A stretch of DNA of 64,000 nt from Rhodothermales bacterium (GCA_964291275.2 OZ219799.1:2334914-2398913), one strand, 5' to 3'; positions 882 through 31,810 are shown, counted from the first letter of the stretch. The notes: generated by a model not told the origin, from the sequence alone. Numbers and translations: made by a program.

Positions 882-919
882 GGGAATTATATACGTGTGT
901 ACCCAAATTTCTGAAAAGT
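882..919 (+). repeat. IRL of the IS1595-type transposon (gggaattatatacgtgtgtacccaaatttctgaaaagt)
   Basis: 888-919 is the exact reverse complement of 5382-5413. 882-887 (gggaat) matches the reverse complement of 7312-7317 (atcccc) at 5 of 6 positions. Confidence 0.9.
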
Positions 920-965
920 TTGCAGTAAATTACAAAAATCTGCAACACTTTACTTAGAATGTCGT

Positions 966-986
966 ATATTTGGGTACACACATACA
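966..986 (-). repeat. Internal partial copy of the IR in IRR orientation; with IRL it forms a roughly 100-bp MITE-like IR pair
   Basis: atttgggtacacac (968-981) is identical to the IRR core, with further partial matches on both sides. It ends 11 nt before the transposase ATG. Confidence 0.6.
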
Positions 987-996
987 AATAAATACG

Positions 997-1968
997 ATGG
1001 CAAAGCGTAGAACAGGACCAGGGAAATCGTACCGGCAAGGGCTTTCATGGGTAAAGCTCATGAAGATGTTTCCTGACGACGCAACTGCTGAAGCATGGTT
1101 TGCAAAGCAACGCTGGGGCAATGAACCCATGTGTCCACACTGCCAATCAACGAATGTGCAAACCGGGGCAAAACATCATATGCCTTACCGCTGCCGTAAT
1201 AAGGAATGCCGTAAGCGGTTCAGTGTGCGTATTGGAACGGTTATGCAAGACTCGAAGTTGGGCTATCAAGTTTGGGCAATGGCCATTTACATACTGGATA
1301 CAGGGATCAAGGGCGTATCCAGCATGAAGTTGCACCGTGATCTGGATATTACGCAGAAGACTGCCTGGCACTTAGCTCACCGTATTCGTAAATCATGGGA
1401 TACGGAACTTGAAGAGTTTGAAGGGCCGGTCGAAGTGGATGAAACGTATGTAGGGGGCAAAGAAAAGAATAAGCACGAGAACAAGAAACTCAACGCAGGT
1501 AGGGGCCCCGTAGGTAAGACGGCCGTAGTAGGTATCAAAGACAGGGAGACACTGCAAGTCCAAGCAAGGGTCGTACAGGATACCACCGCAGATACGCTCA
1601 CAGGCTTCGTGTACAGCACTTCGAGGCAGGAGGCACAAACCTACACCGATGACGCAAAAGCGTACCAGGCGTTGAAGAGAGCTGCACACGCGACCGTTAA
1701 GCACTCCGTCAAGCAATACGTGGACGGAATGGCGCACATCAACGGCATGGAATCGTTCTGGTCGTTACTGAAGCGTGGCTACTATGGCACCTATCACAAG
1801 ATGTCGCCCGAGCATCTCCAGCGCTACGTAGATGAGTTTGTTGGACGGCACAATGTACGTCGACTGGATACCGTCGAGCAAATGGAATTGACCGCACAGG
1901 GGCTTGTAGGGAAGCAGCTCACGTACAATATGCTCACCCGGAAAGTTGGCAAAACAGCAAGGACATGA
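997..1968 (+). CDS. IS1595-family (ISXO2-like) DDE transposase with N-terminal zinc ribbon
   Basis: Motifs CPHCQS...YRCRNKECRKRFSV (zinc ribbon) and VEVDETYVGGKEKNKH, GKTAVVGIKDR, typical of IS1595 transposases. The ATG at 997 is preferred over the TTG at 970. Confidence 0.85.
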   Translation: MAKRRTGPGKSYRQGLSWVKLMKMFPDDATAEAWFAKQRWGNEPMCPHCQSTNVQTGAKHHMPYRCRNKECRKRFSVRIGTVMQDSKLGYQVWAMAIYILDTGIKGVSSMKLHRDLDITQKTAWHLAHRIRKSWDTELEEFEGPVEVDETYVGGKEKNKHENKKLNAGRGPVGKTAVVGIKDRETLQVQARVVQDTTADTLTGFVYSTSRQEAQTYTDDAKAYQALKRAAHATVKHSVKQYVDGMAHINGMESFWSLLKRGYYGTYHKMSPEHLQRYVDEFVGRHNVRRLDTVEQMELTAQGLVGKQLTYNMLTRKVGKTART

Positions 1969-2011
1969 GTTATCACCAGATTGCACGCAAAGAACTCATA
2001 GCTTAAGCAGT

Positions 2012-3016
2012 ATGTCCTATAATCGCAATTTACACAAAGCAAAGGCATCTGCAAATGATGAGTTTTACACGCAACTGGAGGACATTGAAAACGAACTGCG
2101 ACACTACAAATCACACTTCAAGGACAAGGTGGTCTATTGCAACTGCGATGATCCACGGGTGAGCAACTTCTTCAAGTATTTCTCTTCTAATTTTGAGTTC
2201 TTGGGTCTCAGCAAGCTGATTACCACCTGCTACAAGAATCAGCAGTCAGATTTATTTTCGCAGCATGATTCCGAGCGGGCAATCAGCTTGGAGTACACTG
2301 GTGATAAAGATGGGGACATGGTGGTCAGTCGTGAGGAAATTGCGGTGACGCACCTGCGGGGCAATGGATGCTTCAAAAGCCCAGAATGTATTGAGCTTCT
2401 GAAGCAGGCAGATATTGTCTGCACGAATCCTCCATTTTCGCGATTCAAAGAGTATGTCGCGAAACTAATGGAGTATGAGAAGAAAATCTTAATTATTGGA
2501 AACATGAACGCGGTCACCTATAAGGAGATATTCCCGCTCATCAAAAATGACAAGCTATGGTATGGACCAAGCATATCAAGTGGTGACAGAGAATTTGGAG
2601 TCCCTGACCATTATCCCCTAACGGCGGCATCCTCTCGGGTTGACGACCAAGGCAGGAAGTACGTTCGTGTAAAGGGAGTGCGTTGGTTCACGAACCTGGA
2701 TCACAGAAAACGCCATGAGGAGTTATTTCTGTACAAAGAGTACTCCCCTGAGGAATATCCGAAATATGATAATTACGACGCGATTGAGGTGGGCAGGACG
2801 AAGAATATTCCAGGAGACTGGCTTGGTGTAATGGGCGTTCCAATCACATTCCTAGATAAGTACAATCCAGATCAGTTTGAGATACTGGGAGCAACGGAAA
2901 GTGAGGGTAAAGGCTTTTCATGTGGCCTTTGGAATCCTCAAAGTAGAGTTGCACAAGCAGTTGTCAATGGACGGAGGGTTTACAAACGGCTCTTTATCCG
3001 TAACAAACAGCTCTGA
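2012..3016 (+). CDS. N6-adenine DNA methyltransferase, EcoRI-methylase-like family (passenger gene)
   Basis: N-terminal DEFYT motif and CTNPPFS (NPPF catalytic motif IV). The ATG at 2012 avoids overlap with the transposase. Its stop is 3 nt before the next ATG. Confidence 0.7.
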   Translation: MSYNRNLHKAKASANDEFYTQLEDIENELRHYKSHFKDKVVYCNCDDPRVSNFFKYFSSNFEFLGLSKLITTCYKNQQSDLFSQHDSERAISLEYTGDKDGDMVVSREEIAVTHLRGNGCFKSPECIELLKQADIVCTNPPFSRFKEYVAKLMEYEKKILIIGNMNAVTYKEIFPLIKNDKLWYGPSISSGDREFGVPDHYPLTAASSRVDDQGRKYVRVKGVRWFTNLDHRKRHEELFLYKEYSPEEYPKYDNYDAIEVGRTKNIPGDWLGVMGVPITFLDKYNPDQFEILGATESEGKGFSCGLWNPQSRVAQAVVNGRRVYKRLFIRNKQL

Positions 3017-3019
3017 TCG

Positions 3020-4171
3020 ATGAAGATTAAACCCGTGGAAATCACCGTTCGCCAGCTTGTGAAAGGCTACGCTGATGATGGAGAGGGCGGTGTGACTGGA
3101 TATAGCGGCCGGCTTGATATCCGCCCCCCATACCAGAGGGAATTCATCTACAATGCTAAGCAGAGGGATGCGGTAGTTGATACGATCTCAAAAGGTTACC
3201 CCCTGAATGTCATGTATTGGTCCGTGCGGGCTGATGGAAGATTCGAGATTATTGATGGACAGCAGCGCACCATTTCGATTGCCCGATATGTGAAGGGAGA
3301 TTTCTCGGTAGGGGATCTCTTTGACTGGAGGGACAAACGCCAATTCCATCGTCTCCAAATAGATGAGCGGGAGAAGATTTTAGACTACAAGCTACATATA
3401 TATCAATGTACTGGAACTAATAGTGATCGTTTGAAGTGGTTCGAGAGGATCAATATAGCTGGCGTGAAGCTGACACAGCAGGAGATTCGGAACGCGGTCT
3501 ATTATGCTCCATGGTTGGAAGAAGCGAAGCGAATATTCAGCAGGAAAGGCTGTCCTGCTTCTGATGTTGGTAAAGGCTATATCAAAGGTAGAGCAGACCG
3601 GCAGGAATACTTGGAACGCGCTATTCAGTGGATTAACCAAGGAGATGTAGTTGGCTATATGAATCGAAAGGAGGGGACGGAAAATGCCCCCAACGGAAAG
3701 AGACTTTGGGATCACTTCGTGTCCGTGATCAACTGGGTAAACGCAACATTCACGGAATATCGCGAAGAGATGGAAGGCGTGGATTGGGGTGATCTTTATC
3801 TCAAATTCAAGGATGCGTCCTTGGAACTTGTTGAGATAGAGGGAAAGATAGCAGAGTTAATGAAATGTGACGAAGTCACGAAAAAGGGAGGTATCTATCC
3901 ATTCGTACTAACAGGTGACAAGAAACATCTGAGTGTCCGTAATTTCAAAAAAAACGACCAGCGTGAGGCTTACGAAGAGCAAAAAGGGATTTGTCCAGAT
4001 TGTGGAGACAAATTCAAAGAAAGAGACATGGATGCGGACCATAAAATCCCTTGGGTCAACGGCGGCCCCACCATTCTAAGCAACTGCCAAATGATGTGTA
4101 GAACCTGTCATAAAGAAAAAACCGCAAGACAGTTACGAGGGTTCTGGATATCATCAGGAAAATCAGAATAG
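3020..4171 (+). CDS. DUF262 (ParB-like/GmrSD N-terminal) domain fused to a C-terminal HNH endonuclease
   Basis: IIDGQQRTISI (the DGQQR hallmark of DUF262). The C-terminus reads DADHKIPWVNGGPTILSNCQMMCRTCHKEKT (HNH). It is translationally coupled to the methyltransferase. Confidence 0.75.
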   Translation: MKIKPVEITVRQLVKGYADDGEGGVTGYSGRLDIRPPYQREFIYNAKQRDAVVDTISKGYPLNVMYWSVRADGRFEIIDGQQRTISIARYVKGDFSVGDLFDWRDKRQFHRLQIDEREKILDYKLHIYQCTGTNSDRLKWFERINIAGVKLTQQEIRNAVYYAPWLEEAKRIFSRKGCPASDVGKGYIKGRADRQEYLERAIQWINQGDVVGYMNRKEGTENAPNGKRLWDHFVSVINWVNATFTEYREEMEGVDWGDLYLKFKDASLELVEIEGKIAELMKCDEVTKKGGIYPFVLTGDKKHLSVRNFKKNDQREAYEEQKGICPDCGDKFKERDMDADHKIPWVNGGPTILSNCQMMCRTCHKEKTARQLRGFWISSGKSE

Positions 4172-4230
4172 AATCGGTTTCAAAAATCTTGGGTACTATC
4201 GTATACAAATTCCTACTTCCCTGTCATTGA

Positions 4231-5166
4231 ATGACAATTTCGATAACAACACAAGCATCTGAGATACCAGAGAATCTGCCTCCGTCAGACTTTGGATTTT
4301 ATATAGATTATGACCAAAGGGATAGAGCAGCCAAACATATTTTTGAGGCAACCTATAGATTCATTGAGGCTTGTGAAGCATCCAGTCAAGCTCTTCTGGG
4401 ATCCGCCGGGGTATCTATTGAGCCAGTTATTGTGTTGGAAAACATCACAACGGGGTCAATTAAAACATGGTTCAAGATATTTTGGCAAGAGGAAGGAGAG
4501 GAAGCAGCCAAAAGTGGAAGCCTAAAGAGATTCCTTGTCACACTTTCCGTTGAGGGAATCAAGAAAATTTTGAGTAATACCAATAATGTTGATGATCCGC
4601 CAGAACTAAGGAATCTTCAAAATGATCTGTTCGAGTTGGTCAATGAAGTAGACATGGACACTCTTTCGCTACGTTTTCCGATTCCTGATAAAAACCTTAT
4701 AGATGTAATTACACGATTTGAGTCTGTAAAAGAACTTCTTGGGCCTGAAGACAGGGCGGCATTGGTACTATCAGATGATACTACTATACGTCTTAATCAG
4801 TCTGTTTCCGTGAACATTGAGAAACTCAAAAAAGAGGCTACAAAGGAAACTCTGGTGAATCCTACGATCACTATGATTCTCATTGTAAGAAAACCTGATT
4901 ATCTTGCGAATAGTCAATGGTCATTTCGACATGAAAGAAGAACCATTGCTGCGACTATTGAAGACCGGAAGTGGTTGAGCGAATTTCAAGGCCGAAAGAT
5001 AGACGTTAGACCGGGAGACGCCCTCAAGTGTCAAGTCAGAATTGAGACATCATACGGGTTCGACAACGAGGTTATTTCCCAAAAGCATTGTATTGAGAAA
5101 GTAGAAGAGGTAATCGAGAATGAACAAGGAGGAACGCAGATGCCTCAGTTATTTGGAAGAGAATAA
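4231..5166 (+). CDS. Hypothetical protein, 311 aa, third passenger gene
   Basis: A long ORF co-oriented with the two genes upstream, 60 nt downstream of the nuclease. No motif I recognise. AT-rich like its neighbours. Confidence 0.55.
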   Translation: MTISITTQASEIPENLPPSDFGFYIDYDQRDRAAKHIFEATYRFIEACEASSQALLGSAGVSIEPVIVLENITTGSIKTWFKIFWQEEGEEAAKSGSLKRFLVTLSVEGIKKILSNTNNVDDPPELRNLQNDLFELVNEVDMDTLSLRFPIPDKNLIDVITRFESVKELLGPEDRAALVLSDDTTIRLNQSVSVNIEKLKKEATKETLVNPTITMILIVRKPDYLANSQWSFRHERRTIAATIEDRKWLSEFQGRKIDVRPGDALKCQVRIETSYGFDNEVISQKHCIEKVEEVIENEQGGTQMPQLFGRE

Positions 5167-5189
5167 TTTCCCAAAACCAAAATCTCACC

Positions 5190-5354
5190 ATGAAACCAAC
5201 CAAATCCACTCCCTCTACCAAGAAGTCTAATGCTCCGCGTGGACGTCCAGCCAAGGATTTGGCACACATTCAGCGGTCAATCCAGTTGGGTTCTCCCGAG
5301 GAGCTGGCGAAGAAGATTTTGAACACTCCACCTGGGAAAATCAAGTTGCGGTAG
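5190..5354 (+). CDS. Possible 54-aa basic protein with an AT-hook-like PRGRPAK motif
   Basis: ATG 5190 to TAG 5352-5354, below the ORF-track cutoff. Sequence MKPTKSTPSTKKSNAPRGRPAKDLAHIQ.... It lies just inside IRR. Support is weak. Confidence 0.25.
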   Translation: MKPTKSTPSTKKSNAPRGRPAKDLAHIQRSIQLGSPEELAKKILNTPPGKIKLR

Positions 5355-5381
5355 ACAAAAACGGTAATGAATTCAACGAGG

Positions 5382-5413
5382 ACTTTTCAGAAATTTGGGT
5401 ACACACGTATATA
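5382..5413 (-). repeat. IRR of the IS1595-type transposon (inner 32 bp); the outer 6 bp (atcccc) are displaced to 7312-7317 by the intron
   Basis: Exact reverse complement of 888-919. Confidence 0.9.
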
Positions 5414-7311
5414 GTGTGCCACGAAAATACATATGAGGTGAAGCGATGACTTAGCTGAGATGTATTGAACTGTGCAAGGGATGGGGGTCGGCCCCCCGCA
5501 ACCGCTGTACAGGCGGAGGTTGCAAACCACCCACAGCTGCGGTATTTAAGAGGTATCGTGGTGAGCGTGTAGGGAAAAGGCAGGTGTAGGAATCTGTTAG
5601 GTGAGGATCGTAGAGTCGAATGAAAATGAACCATGGATGACGTGTCGAAAAGAATTAGATGATGGTCGAAACCGGGGTCGTATATTAATCCTGGGACGAG
5701 GTTGGCGGGGACCTGTTTACTGGCCAACTGGCCTCCGGCATATACATGGCGAGAATGCGATTTGGGCCCTTGTATGGAACGTGGGAACATGTCGGAGTGA
5801 TGCGAAGGGAGCGTGTCAAGCGGGCGCCCCCCGTGAGACATTGAGTACCAAAGCACTCCACATGGGCGGATCACCTCGTAGTAGTGAGGAAGCTTCTGTA
5901 ATGGAAGTAGAGCGAAGGGGGTGAACCATGCAGCAGGACGCGAGGGAGCAACCGAGAGGGAGGACTTCAACGCAAAATGCAAAGCCGTTTCCGGTGACCA
6001 AGCGACAAGTTTGGGAGGCATGGAAGCGGGTGAAGGCGAATCAGGGCGGGGCAGGGATTGATCAACAGTCTATTGCGGATATCGAGGAGAATCTTGCGGA
6101 CAATCTCTACAAGATTTGGAATCGGATGGCATCGGGCAGTTATCATCCGAAGCCGGTGCGCCGCGTGAATATTCCGAAGTCAGACGGAGGGGTTCGTCCC
6201 TTGGGAATACCCACGGTGGCAGATCGGGTGGCACAGATGGTGGTGAAACAAGTTTTGGAGCCGGAACTGGAACGCGTGTTCCATCCGGATTCCTATGGGT
6301 ACCGACCGAACAAATCGGCTCATGCTGCGCTCCGGCAGACGCGAAGGCGGTGCTGGGAACGGGCCTGGGTACTGGACATGGATATCAAGTCCTATTTTGA
6401 CACGATAGACCATGCGCTGTTGATGAAAGCGGTCCGACGACATACGGATCAGAAGTGGGTGCTCTTGTACATAGAGCGCTGGCTGACGGCACCGGTGATT
6501 CACCCAGACGGGACGGAAGCGGCTCGGGACATTGGGACACCCCAAGGCGGGGTCATCAGTCCACTGTTGGCCAATCTGTTTTTGCACTACTCGTTTGATA
6601 AGTGGATGGAGCGGTATTACCCGCAGATTCCATTTGAGCGATATGCAGATGATATTGTGTGCCACTGCACGAGTGAGGAATAGGCGCACGAACTTTGGCA
6701 GGTGCTCAAGGGACGTTTTACGGCCTGTAACTTAAAGTTACACCCGGATAAGACCCGGATCGTATACTGCAAGAGTGCGCGCCGAGAAGGCACGTATCCG
6801 GAGATTTCCTTTGATTTCTTGGGCTACACGTTTAGACCTCGAATGACAATGAGTCGCGGGGGCAAGATCTTTCTTGGGTTCAATCCAGCGATAAGCCGAA
6901 AGGCGGCGAAAGCCATACGGGAGACCATTTACAGTTGGGGATTGGCTCGCATGAGTCCATTCTCAATGGCACACATTGCAAGCAGGATAAATGCCGTGGT
7001 GCGGGGATGGATTGCCTATTATGGCGTATTCTTCAAATCGGAACTGAAAAAGGTTTTGAGAAGCATTGACCAACACCTCATCCGATGGATGATGCGGAAG
7101 TATAAGCACTTCCGGGGACATTGGAGACGGTCGTGGCGATGGTTAACGAGAATTGCTCGTCAAAATTCCGGTATATTCGTGCATTGGGCGTTTCTTTACG
7201 GTTCACCTTTGTTCAATTCCAAACGGTTGCATGGTAAGAGCCGCGTGAGTTGAGAGGCTCACGCGCGGTTCTGTGAGAGCCCGGGGGTGAAATTCCCCCG
7301 GGCTACTTGAC
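5414..7311 (+). mobile_element. Group II intron, copy 1 (ribozyme plus RT/maturase ORF in domain IV)
   Basis: The 5' end is GUGUG. A canonical 34-nt domain V lies at 7238-7271 (AGC triad, 2-nt bulge, GAGA tetraloop). The domain VI hairpin has a bulged A and a terminal AC at 7311. The boundaries are independently confirmed because removing 5414-7311 restores the transposon IRR. Confidence 0.85.
5928..7253 (+). pseudogene. Group II intron RT/maturase (IEP) interrupted by one in-frame TAG (6681-6683)
   Basis: The two ORFs 5928-6683 and 6702-7253 share a frame. Their total length (1326 nt) equals that of the intact copy at 30427-31752. The sequence has YADD and RT motifs and an X domain (RGWIAYYG) but no En domain. 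The stop replaces the Gln codon seen in copy 2. Confidence 0.8.
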
Positions 7312-7317
7312 ATCCCC

Positions 7318-7325
7318 TTAACAAA
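7318..7325. repeat. Right copy of the 8-bp target-site duplication ttaacaaa
   Basis: Identical to 874-881 and immediately outside the IRR tip at 7312-7317. Confidence 0.8.
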
Positions 7326-29915: not shown

Positions 29916-31810
29916 GTGTGCCACGAAGTACACGGAGGTGAGTCAATGACATAGCCGAAATGTACGAACTGTATAAGGGATGGGGGACGGCCCCCCGCAA
30001 TCGCCGTGCAGGCGGAGGTTGCAAACCGCCCACAGCTGCTGCACTAAAGAGGTGTGGTGGTGAGCGTGCTGGGAAAAGGCAGGTGTAGGAACCTGTCAGG
30101 TGAGAGTCGTAGAGTCGAACGCAAGTGAATCACGGATGACGAGTCGAAAGTCCTTAGAAGATGGTCAAAACCGGGGTATTCTCCTGATCCCGGGACGAGG
30201 TTGGCGGGGACCTGCTTACTGGCCAACCGGCCTCCGGCATAAACGTGGCGAGAATGCGACTTGGGCCCTTATACGGAACGTGGGAACGTGTCGGAGTGAT
30301 GAGAAGGGAGCGTGGCAAGCAGGCAGTACCTGTAAGCCATTGAGTACCAAGGCACTCCACACGGGCGGATCACCTCGTAGTAGTGATGAGACTCCTGTAA
30401 CGGGAGAGGAGCGAAGGGGGTGAACCATGCAGCAGGACGCGAGGAAGCAACCGAAAGGGAGGACTTCAACGCAAAACGCAAAGCCGTTTCCAGTGACCAA
30501 GCGACAAGTTTGGGAGGCGTGGAAGCGTGTAAAGGCGAACCAAGGCGGGGCGGGGATCGATGCGCAGTCCATCGCAGATTTCGAGGCCAAGCTTGCGGAT
30601 AATCTCTACAAGCTCTGGAATCGAATGGCATCGGGCAGTTATCATCCACAGCCGGTGCGACGGGTAAATATTCCGAAGTCGGACGGAGGCGTCCGGCCCT
30701 TGGGAATCCCAACCGTTGCGGATCGGGTGGCACAGATGGTGGTGAAGCAGGTTTTGGAGCCGGAACTGGAACGAGAGTTCCATCCCGATTCCTATGGATA
30801 CCGACCGAACAAATCGGCCCATGACGCACTCCGGCAGACGCGAACGCGATGCTGGAAGCGGGCCTGGGTACTGGACATGGATATCAAATCTTATTTTGAT
30901 ACGATAGACCATGCTCTGTTGATGAAAGCGGTCCGGCTACACACGGATCAGAAGTGGGTGCTCTTATATATAGAGCGTTGGCTGACGGCACCGGTGATTC
31001 ATCCAGACGGGACGGAAGAGGCTCGGGATGTTGGGACCCCGCAGGGCGGGGTAATCAGTCCGCTGCTGGCCAATCTGTTTCTGCATTACGCGTTTGATAA
31101 ATGGATGGAACGGAGGTATTCGCACATTCCATTTGAGCGGTATGCAGACGACATCGTATGCCATTGCACGACAAAGAAGCAAGCGCGCTACCTCTGGAAG
31201 GTGCTGAGGGAACGCTTTAAGGCTTGCAACTTAACCTTGCACCCAGTGAAAACCAAGATTGTATACTGCAAGCAGGCATACTTTCGGGGTTCATTTCCAA
31301 ACACTTCGTTCGATTTTCTGGGGTATACGTTTCGACCGCGGAAGACACGGAGTCGGAGGGGGAGGAATTTTCTTGGGTTCAATCCGGCGATAAGTCGGAA
31401 GGCGATGAAGGCCGTACAAGAGACGATCCATGGTTGGAGGTTGGCTCGAATGAGTCCACACCCGATTACGTACATAGCGGGCAAGATCAATGCCACGGTA
31501 CGTGGATGGATTGATTATTACGGTGCGTTCTTTAAATCAGCATTAAGGCGGCCATTGGAAGGCATTGACCGTCACCTAACACGGTGGCTAATGCGGAAAT
31601 ATAAACGTTTCCGTGGTCGGTGGCTTCGGGCGTTTACGTGGTTAATAGAGCGTGCTCGTCGGGATTCGGGATTGTTCGTGCACTGGGAGTTTCTTCATGG
31701 TTCACCTTTATTCAATTCCGAACGGCTGCATGGTAGGAGCCGTGTGAGTTGAGAGGCTCACGCACGGTTCTGTGAGGGCCGGGGGGTGAGATTCCCCCCG
31801 GCTACTTGAC
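29916..31810 (+). mobile_element. Group II intron, copy 2 (intact IEP), nested in the IS and antisense to its transposase
   Basis: Collinear with copy 1 along its whole length but clearly diverged. It has the same GUGUG 5' end, domain V at 31737-31770 and a 3' end ...ggctacttgac at 31810. Confidence 0.85.
30427..31752 (+). CDS. Group II intron-encoded reverse transcriptase/maturase (no endonuclease domain)
   Basis: 441 aa with RT blocks ([28 protein letters not shown]) and maturase X domain (RGWIDYYG). The stop codon lies inside domain V. Confidence 0.9.
   Translation: MQQDARKQPKGRTSTQNAKPFPVTKRQVWEAWKRVKANQGGAGIDAQSIADFEAKLADNLYKLWNRMASGSYHPQPVRRVNIPKSDGGVRPLGIPTVADRVAQMVVKQVLEPELEREFHPDSYGYRPNKSAHDALRQTRTRCWKRAWVLDMDIKSYFDTIDHALLMKAVRLHTDQKWVLLYIERWLTAPVIHPDGTEEARDVGTPQGGVISPLLANLFLHYAFDKWMERRYSHIPFERYADDIVCHCTTKKQARYLWKVLRERFKACNLTLHPVKTKIVYCKQAYFRGSFPNTSFDFLGYTFRPRKTRSRRGRNFLGFNPAISRKAMKAVQETIHGWRLARMSPHPITYIAGKINATVRGWIDYYGAFFKSALRRPLEGIDRHLTRWLMRKYKRFRGRWLRAFTWLIERARRDSGLFVHWEFLHGSPLFNSERLHGRSRVS

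Follow-up and report, generated by a model that had tools for sequence, protein, structure and literature searches.

The DNA analysed here, called the window below, is a stretch of 64,000 nt from a Rhodothermales bacterium (GCA_964291275.2, OZ219799.1:2334914-2398913), in which positions 2012-5354 encode a DNA methyltransferase (MTase), a nuclease, a 311-aa protein and a 54-aa basic protein. Our analysis showed that the MTase and nuclease genes are carried as cargo by a transporter insertion sequence (IS) of the IS1595 family at 882-7317. We consider it probable that 2012-4171 is a two-gene Type II-like restriction-modification (R-M) module, and that the proteins of 311 and 54 aa are part of the lineage of the IS. 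Each component belongs to a kind already known, the two genes to the catalogued Type II-like R-M pairs and their vehicle to the IS1595 transporter ISs. An earlier interpretation based on the DNA alone (the sequence-only reading) had proposed the same gene order and coordinates, and all of the open reading frames (ORFs) that it listed were present on the + strand.

The M gene (2012-3016, + strand) encoded a 334-aa EcoRI-family N6-adenine DNA MTase of the NPPF type, with VCTNPPFS as the catalytic motif in the translated ORF. The protein matched the Pfam EcoRI_methylase profile over its entire length (1.9e-139, positions 1-345 of 345) and the PADLOC MTase_II model PDLC03297 from end to end (9e-125), in agreement with its earlier description as an EcoRI-methylase-like enzyme with NPPF. 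An identical 334-aa product is recorded in a public protein collection, and its contig (2.84 Mb) also encodes the nuclease and the 311-aa protein of the window. The R gene (3020-4171, + strand), which started directly after a spacer of 3 nt past the MTase stop codon, encoded a 383-aa nuclease with a DUF262 (ParB-like, DGQQR) domain and a Cys4-HNH domain. Residues 1-362 of the nuclease aligned with positions 1-364 of 372 in the PADLOC REase_II model PDLC03418 (3.8e-115, 383 bits), whereas the Type IV model mREase_IV matched the HNH part only (0.003). One of the earlier proposals, an R-M system in which the restriction component is of the ParB-like/HNH type, was supported by these full-length matches to Type II models. 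The Pfam search revealed GmrSD_N at residues 34-161 (1.6e-19) and HNH PF01844 at residues 325-370 (9.4e-13); DUF1524 (PF07510) was not found by this search in the C-terminus, which consisted of the PF01844 Cys4-HNH domain.

The motifs of the nuclease were located at residues 77-83 (IIDGQQR), D340-H341...N355, and 325-328 and 361-364 (the two CxxC pairs). Alignments of 21 and 49 homologues showed that PPYQREF (the "QR" motif), D79-G-Q-Q-R83, F141...N145 (FxxxN), D340-H341 and N355 were invariant, while C325 was the only invariant residue from the two CxxC pairs and the remaining cysteines were not all kept. The DGQQR and HNH/Cys4 motifs were intact in the window, as expected for the DUF262-HNH nuclease that had been read from the sequence 3 nt past the MTase stop. 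The QR, DGQQR and FxxxN motifs are those defined for the GmrS domain by Machnicka et al. (PMC4619093). The AlphaFold2 model of the nuclease (pLDDT 86.7) contained an N-terminal ParB-like α/β domain, a helical middle part and a C-terminal β-β-α HNH domain. Searching the PDB with this model gave BrxU (7P9K) as the only match at E≤0.001, followed by ParB/Noc CTPase domains and the Gme HNH nuclease, and the whole-chain TM scores to these matches were low. PDB searches with the sequences returned generic HNH matches only for the nuclease and none for the MTase.

The pairing of the two genes was conserved far beyond the window. In a metagenome sample of 80 nuclease loci, 65 had at least 1 kb of upstream DNA and were informative, and 64 of these 65 contained an EcoRI-family MTase gene upstream of the nuclease homologue. 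The MTase gene was within 300 nt and on the same strand in 55 of the 65 loci and 0.3-1.3 kb upstream in nine more. In the loci of the closest nuclease relatives, L001 (83% identity) and L002 (73%), an EcoRI_methylase gene likewise preceded the nuclease gene at a distance of 3 nt; their MTases were 88% and 77% identical to that of the window, respectively. The same order was found in L001 to L004, and the nucleotide similarity between the window and L001 was limited precisely to the pair (1996-4171). The nuclease family is very large: of the 8,000 cluster representatives scored, the maximum for the search, 7,985 reached E≤1e-10, so that this number is a lower bound. The nuclease was also found on 50 plasmid records, and among the matches listed, most showed the pairing with an MTase. 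The hosts of these plasmids included Sulfitobacter, Aeromonas, Mammaliicoccus, Variovorax, Gordonia, lactobacilli and Enterococcus, and the plasmid-borne pair spanned Alpha- and Gammaproteobacteria, Firmicutes, Actinobacteria and Bacteroidota. In the annotation of the plasmids, an "adenine-specific methyltransferase EcoRI family protein" overlapped or abutted a "DUF262 domain-containing protein", and the MTase was directly upstream of the nuclease in the Sulfitobacter and Aeromonas plasmids that were read. The pair was found on plasmids of 7-10 kb.

Because the MTase gene was present in 64 of the 65 loci and usually abutted or overlapped the nuclease gene, the MTase appears to be an obligate protective partner. 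Together with the occurrence on plasmids of 7-10 kb, this points to a classical R-M or addiction pair rather than a modification-dependent enzyme, and a nuclease paired in this way should be blocked by modification and not depend on it. The sequence-only reading had considered the coupling of a DUF262 nuclease to an MTase as unexpected. This view was not supported, since catalogued Type II models matched both proteins and the pairing was the rule in the informative loci and recurred on plasmids.

Several further observations were made on the pair itself. In the nine loci with a gap of 0.3-1.3 kb between M and R (L098, L099, L104, L122, L124, L129, L141, L162 and L163), the intervening DNA possibly encodes a small regulator. 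An imperfect inverted repeat of 26 nt linked 2555-2580, in the codons for LWYGPSISS of the MTase, with 3113-3138, in the codons for LDIRPPYQR of the nuclease, and it was kept in L001 and L002. The repeat is probably a by-product of the conserved codons, although it could also allow mRNA pairing over the M/R junction. Scanning for promoters and terminators gave counts close to those of shuffled sequences. No signal of palindrome avoidance was detected in the 64-kb window, where GAATTC, CAATTG and AATT were near expectation. A correlation between MTase and nuclease identities over the loci (Pearson 0.68, Spearman 0.14) was driven by the two close relatives and was not used as evidence.

The pair was located inside a transposon, as the sequence-only reading had suggested. 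The target-site duplication of the IS1595 family is 8 bp, and the identical octamer TTAACAAA was present on the left side at 874-881, 13 nt past the stop of a flanking alcohol dehydrogenase (ADH)-like gene, and on the right side at 7318-7325. The element between them (882-7317) would be 4.5 kb without the group II intron that it contains. Its left terminal inverted repeat (IRL, GGGAATTATATACGTGTGTACCCAAATTTCTGAAAAGT) occupied 38 nt at 882-919 on the + strand, and the inner 32 nt of the right repeat (IRR), at 5382-5413 (+), were 100% complementary to 888-919; no such perfect 32-nt inverted repeat occurred in shuffled sequences. The group II intron (5414-7311, +) was inserted within IRR, 6 bp from its tip, and split the transposon end by 1.9 kb. 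The last 6 nt of IRR (ATCCCC) were therefore displaced to 7312-7317 (+), where five of the six positions paired with the GGGAAT tip of IRL. With the intron removed, the inverted repeats matched at 37 of 38 nt. This reconstruction agreed with the related elements, whose left ends were GGGGCTATACACG in L002, GGGATTATATACC in L019 and GGGAATTATATACC in L165, and whose uninterrupted right ends, GGTATATAATCCCC in L164 and GGTATATAATTCCC in L165, were equal to 5407-5413 joined to 7312-7317.

The transposase gene (997-1968, + strand) encoded 323 aa from the likely start ATG at 997; the ORF opened at TTG 970, and the 332-aa version beginning there corresponded to no existing gene call. The protein contained DDE_Tnp_IS1595 (2.9e-40) and Zn_ribbon_IS1595 (2.7e-6) in the Pfam search and exceeded the cut-off of the NCBIfam model transpos_IS1595 NF033547 (3.9e-51, 174 bits, cut-off 75). 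The passengers enclosed by IRL and IRR were the M, R, 311-aa and 54-aa genes. The region was more AT-rich than the backbone, in accordance with the sequence-only reading, with a GC content of 0.40-0.48 over 2000-5250, a minimum over the 311-aa gene, and values of 0.50-0.56 in the flanks. The element was flanked by the ADH-like gene on one side and Bax1-I and PfkB genes on the other, and the insertion site was not a defence island. In addition, the core of the left repeat was present a second time, in inverted form, as 17 nt at 968-984 (94% complementary to 892-908), 59 nt inside the left end in the start region of the transposase gene, and it could be a transposase-binding or regulatory site.

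A second, degenerate right end (IRR', 37 nt, 4178-4214, + strand) was found inside the element, between the nuclease gene and the 311-aa gene. It was 70% complementary to 881-917, was in right-end orientation, and began 7 nt past the nuclease stop. Two related elements helped to interpret it. The L002 element consisted of IRL, a 154-aa ORF, a transposase pseudogene, M, R and IRR, and lacked the 311-aa gene; its nucleotide similarity to the window covered the transposase, M and R and ended at the R stop codon. The element of L042, from Chitinophagales, consisted of IRL, a transposase, a 311-aa homologue, a 57-aa ORF with a GRPAR core, a 70-aa ORF and IRR. The stops and starts of its first three genes overlapped, and its gene order was that of the window minus the R-M pair. 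IRR' appears to be the relic of an ancestral transposase-M-R transporter IS. Since the copy in the window keeps this internal relic end, the element is best read as a probable hybrid of two relatives, an L002-type transposase-M-R IS and an L042-type IS with transposase, 311-aa gene and small ORF. The IS backbone, with the transposase, the 311-aa gene, the 54-aa gene and the right end as in L042, would have received the R-M pair together with its own decayed right end (4178-4214) from the L002-type relative (transposase, M, R, right end). The hybrid would then have transposed as one unit and produced the 8-bp duplication, and the group II intron would have split the right end later, probably immobilising the element. 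This order of events is our suggestion from the arrangement of the parts.

The 311-aa gene (4231-5166, + strand) followed the nuclease gene after 59 nt and preceded the 54-aa ORF by 23 nt. It had been described from the sequence as a protein without any recognisable domain, and this was true for Pfam only, in which the search gave no match. The protein passed the NCBI cut-off of NF053583, named "LAPAL motif-containing putative phage structural protein" (71.7 bits, cut-off 60; residues 66-295 on positions 48-291 of 292), and matched the PADLOC family PDC-S42 (1.5e-9) with its C-terminal 100 residues only, which aligned with the C-terminal third of PDC-S42. The name of the NCBI family did not fit the protein, as the literal LAPAL motif was not present in its sequence, no phage context was found either in the window or around the homologues encoded by 79 genome loci, and the recurrent neighbour was an IS1595 transposase. 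The family comprised 285 homologues, which were about 300 aa long and strongly conserved at the C-terminus, and the closest relatives were in Rhodothermales metagenome-assembled genomes. The AlphaFold2 model was confident (pLDDT 87.4, pTM 0.82); the search of the PDB gave no whole-chain match for this model and only partial ones, in which the C-terminal ~100 residues resembled the OB folds of the LysRS N-domain, ExoVII and SSB at low TM. Against a viral library, the model matched uncharacterised phage proteins at TM about 0.3.

The neighbourhoods of the 311-aa family were analysed in the same 79 loci. An IS1595 transposase was located within 1.5 kb of the homologue in 16 of them, as the immediate neighbour in 13, and anywhere in the locus in 19. 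It was the only recurrent neighbour, and the other neighbours were assorted housekeeping genes. Inverted repeats enclosed the 311-aa gene together with the transposase in at least five loci (L028, L029, L032, L042 and L061). Conversely, no 311-aa homologue was found in any of the 80 nuclease metagenome loci, in which the IS1595 transposase was also absent (0/80), or in any of the four closest nuclease loci (L001-L004). The M-R pair was present in one of the 79 loci (L036), 2.3 kb from the 311-aa homologue and behind a transposase fragment. This locus was rejected as evidence for a link, because its pair lay between different 66-nt repeats and was read as a clustering of mobile elements. Lone 311-aa genes were also considered as cassettes without a transposase, and this was rejected since flanking inverted repeats scored 15 or more in only three of 73 loci; the repeats scored above the best shuffled control (13) in six of the 73, two of which had no IS1595 transposase ORF in the locus. 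The 311-aa gene travels with the IS1595 lineage and is probably not a component of the restriction system.

The 54-aa ORF (5190-5354, + strand) encoded a basic protein with an AT-hook-like RGRPAK core (PRGRPAK). It had been noted as a possible AT-hook-like peptide and proved to be a member of a real small family, with eight representatives at E<1e-3 and 28 proteins matching the profile. The conserved core of the family was RGRPAKD...IQRSIQLGSPEELAKKIL.TPPGKIKLR. In the three loci that were read (L164, L165 and L166), the homologue was just inside an IS1595-type right end, which reads ...GGTACACAGGTATATAATCCCC in L164; in L166 the ORF reads through the repeat. At 7386-8231 of L165, an element of ~846 bp with 24-nt IS1595-type inverted repeats had no transposase and contained the 54-aa homologue as its sole ORF. 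In this IS lineage, the 54-aa ORF can thus be regarded as a gene conserved at the right end. The L165 mini-element was inserted among fatty-acid oxidation genes.

The function of the 311-aa and 54-aa genes within the IS lineage can be viewed in more than one way. They may be accessory factors of transposition, involved in DNA binding, target choice or regulation, instead of cargo acting at the level of the host, and we regard this as possible although doubtful. The overlapping stops and starts of the transposase, 311-aa and 57-aa genes in L042, the association with IS1595 over several phyla and transposase subgroups at 30-58% identity, and the retention of the 54-aa ORF in the L165 element without a transposase all favour such a role, and the OB-like C-terminus and AT-hook-like core predicted for the two proteins suggest nucleic-acid binding. 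However, about 75-80% of the 311-aa homologues had no IS1595 transposase nearby and most had no flanking inverted repeats, the orientation relative to the transposase varied (convergent in most alphaproteobacterial elements), and the status of the family as a PADLOC candidate suggests that it is enriched in the vicinity of defence genes. The many 311-aa homologues without a nearby transposase and the PADLOC status favour the other view, that the 311-aa protein is cargo with a role for the host or in defence.

The other possibilities connect the 311-aa protein with R-M genes, and they start from loci in which homologues are directly beside R-M genes of another kind and co-oriented with them (L011, L040/L041 and one more). 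In L011, a transposase was followed by a 748-aa HSDR_N/N6_Mtase/S fusion and a 311-aa homologue (52% identity), which is the same frame as the window element with a different R-M cargo. Since a few loci place the 311-aa gene directly beside co-oriented R-M genes of three unrelated types, a small probability was kept for a general link, in which the 311-aa and small AT-hook proteins form a functional module of one IS1595 lineage and act with whatever R-M cargo is carried. The module could possibly serve as a second line of defence, alleviate restriction, or bind DNA and so couple the cargo to transposition. If this were true, the earlier statement that the third component is new would be right in spirit, and the elements would be self-mobile mini defence islands.

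It is very unlikely that this particular R-M or defence system has a functional third component, for example a regulator, sensor or second effector, in the 311-aa protein, either alone or together with the 54-aa protein. The co-orientation of all the genes with short gaps of 59 and 23 nt, the match to the PADLOC defence candidate PDC-S42, and the homologues beside R-M genes in L011 and L040/L041 or adjoining the R-M-carrying transporter IS in L019 are in its favour. It is opposed by the absence of a homologue from all 80 nuclease loci and the four closest ones, by the three unrelated families to which the R-M partners beside it belong, by immediate neighbours that are mostly housekeeping genes or IS1595 transposases, by the relic transposon end between the nuclease and 311-aa genes, and by the L042 element, which has the transposase, the 311-aa gene and the small ORF without any R-M genes. 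The three-gene system put forward by the sequence-only reading was not supported. Two of the outcomes that this reading itself had named as refuting were observed, since the pair belonged to a catalogued type and the third gene did not co-occur with it (the pair was present in only one of the 79 311-aa loci); the relic end also stood in between.

Two types of R-M genes near the 311-aa family were observed as follows. The elements at 7127-11078 of L019 and 95-3281 of L011 were IS1595 transporter ISs with the same repeat type (GGGATTATATAC...), and their cargo was a single-chain fusion of N6_Mtase with a specificity domain, to which the L011 version adds an HSDR_N nuclease domain; a 311-aa homologue directly adjoined each of the two elements. 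A fusion of N6_N4_Mtase with Mrr_cat was located near 311-aa homologues in seven loci (L040 and L041, at 4219-5970 in both, and L020, L034, L036, L059 and L063), and was directly adjacent to and co-oriented with the homologue in three of them.

Finally, a GmrSD-like Type IV, modification-dependent nuclease, beside which the MTase would be an orphan or anti-restriction methylase and not a protective partner, is very improbable, because the N-terminal GmrSD_N domain with its DGQQR, QR and FxxxN motifs, the top structural match to BrxU and the weak mREase_IV match in the HNH part (0.003) are outweighed by a C-terminal PF01844 Cys4-HNH in place of DUF1524, the full-length REase_II match (3.8e-115), the MTase gene that 64 of 65 loci contain and that mostly touches the nuclease gene or overlaps it, and the 7-10 kb plasmids typical of addiction-type R-M.

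Some points weigh against a Type II-like module carried by a hybrid IS. The nearest solved protein to the nuclease by fold is BrxU, a Type IV enzyme, and the NCBI name for these nucleases is merely "DUF262 domain-containing protein". Literature searches turned up no paper on the pairing of this MTase with a DUF262-HNH protein, and no characterised prototype behind PDLC03418 was identified in the literature or by PDB sequence searches. The origin from two elements rests on one decayed repeat with 70% identity, and the 311-aa homologues directly beside other R-M genes, described above, belong to the same side of the balance.

For the Type II-like module, the following mechanism is proposed. The MTase, which by its EcoRI-family membership would be a gamma-class N6-adenine enzyme, would mark a specific site in the host DNA, and the downstream DUF262-HNH protein, probably translationally coupled, would cut DNA without that mark. 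The Cys4-HNH domain is the likely catalytic centre, while the ParB-like DGQQR domain and the helical middle domain may supply DNA binding, nucleotide binding or both. NTPs may therefore modulate the nuclease family, as they do GmrSD and BrxU, and nucleotide binding probably matters for the activity because the ParB-type motifs are invariant. The IS would plausibly benefit from the pair as addiction and defence cargo.

Comparison with known systems showed that the module combines features of two groups of enzymes. Among Type II enzymes, only one catalytic class is more common than HNH with the Cys4 zinc structure (PMC4081073). The window pair resembled the Type II HNH (Cys4-Zn) systems KpnI, Hpy99I, SphI and PacI in being a two-gene unit with M before R, in the N6A MTase with NPPF, and in a nuclease with D-H...N and two CxxC pairs; unlike theirs, the window nuclease has an N-terminal ParB-like DUF262 domain. 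It shared with GmrSD, BrxU and SspE (DUF262 + DUF1524) the N-terminal DUF262 with QR, DGQQR and FxxxN and a C-terminal His-Me-finger nuclease, but its C-terminus is a PF01844 Cys4-HNH, it is ~200 residues shorter than BrxU, and it is paired with an MTase. Sequence matches of the nuclease in the PDB were confined to the HNH part, and the only whole-chain fold match, to BrxU, was weak.

The element itself also had precedents. IS1595 is given in PMC3129680, with reference to Siguier 2009, as the family in which the passenger-carrying "transporter IS" was defined. Furuta et al. 2010 (PMC2853133) described R-M units that resemble transposons in having inverted repeats and 8-bp duplications and, in one case, a transposase-like gene. 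The window element agreed with the transporter ISs of Siguier, Gagnevin and Chandler 2009 in its DDE_Tnp_IS1595 transposase with a zinc ribbon, terminal repeats, 8-bp duplication and passengers, and with the R-M units of Furuta et al. in its inverted repeats and 8-bp duplication. It differed from both in keeping an internal relic end, in carrying the R-M pair together with the 311-aa and 54-aa genes of the lineage, and in having a group II intron inside its right repeat.

These results suggest, from sequence comparison, that this nuclease family, labelled "DUF262 domain-containing protein" by NCBI, acts as the R subunit in Type II pairs whose M subunit is an EcoRI-family methylase, and that equating DUF262 with Type IV enzymes misjudges it. 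In the literature searched, no description was found of how a ParB-like domain, which probably binds nucleotides, works in a restriction enzyme that methylation blocks. The locus also shows an IS1595 transporter IS assembling cargo. As PDC-S42 travels largely with IS1595 transposases, caution is needed in calling a defence gene from its context alone. The remaining interest of the locus is modest and concerns the role of the ParB-like domain in a methylation-blocked enzyme and the function of the IS-borne 311-aa protein.

The identity and boundaries of the group II intron in IRR were supported by several features. Rfam matched RF01999 at 5483-5602 (103 bits; D1-D4) and RF00029 at 7236-7311 (55.9 bits; D5/D6), and the ends of the intron, 5' GTGTG and 3' AC, fit GUGYG...AY. 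The ORF for its reverse transcriptase (RT)/maturase (5928-7253) contained the Pfam domains RVT_1 and GIIM and was interrupted by one in-frame stop at 6681-6683. At 29916-31810 the window contained another copy of the intron, 82% identical, which fixed both ends. This other copy carries an intact RT/maturase ORF of 441 aa at 30427-31752.

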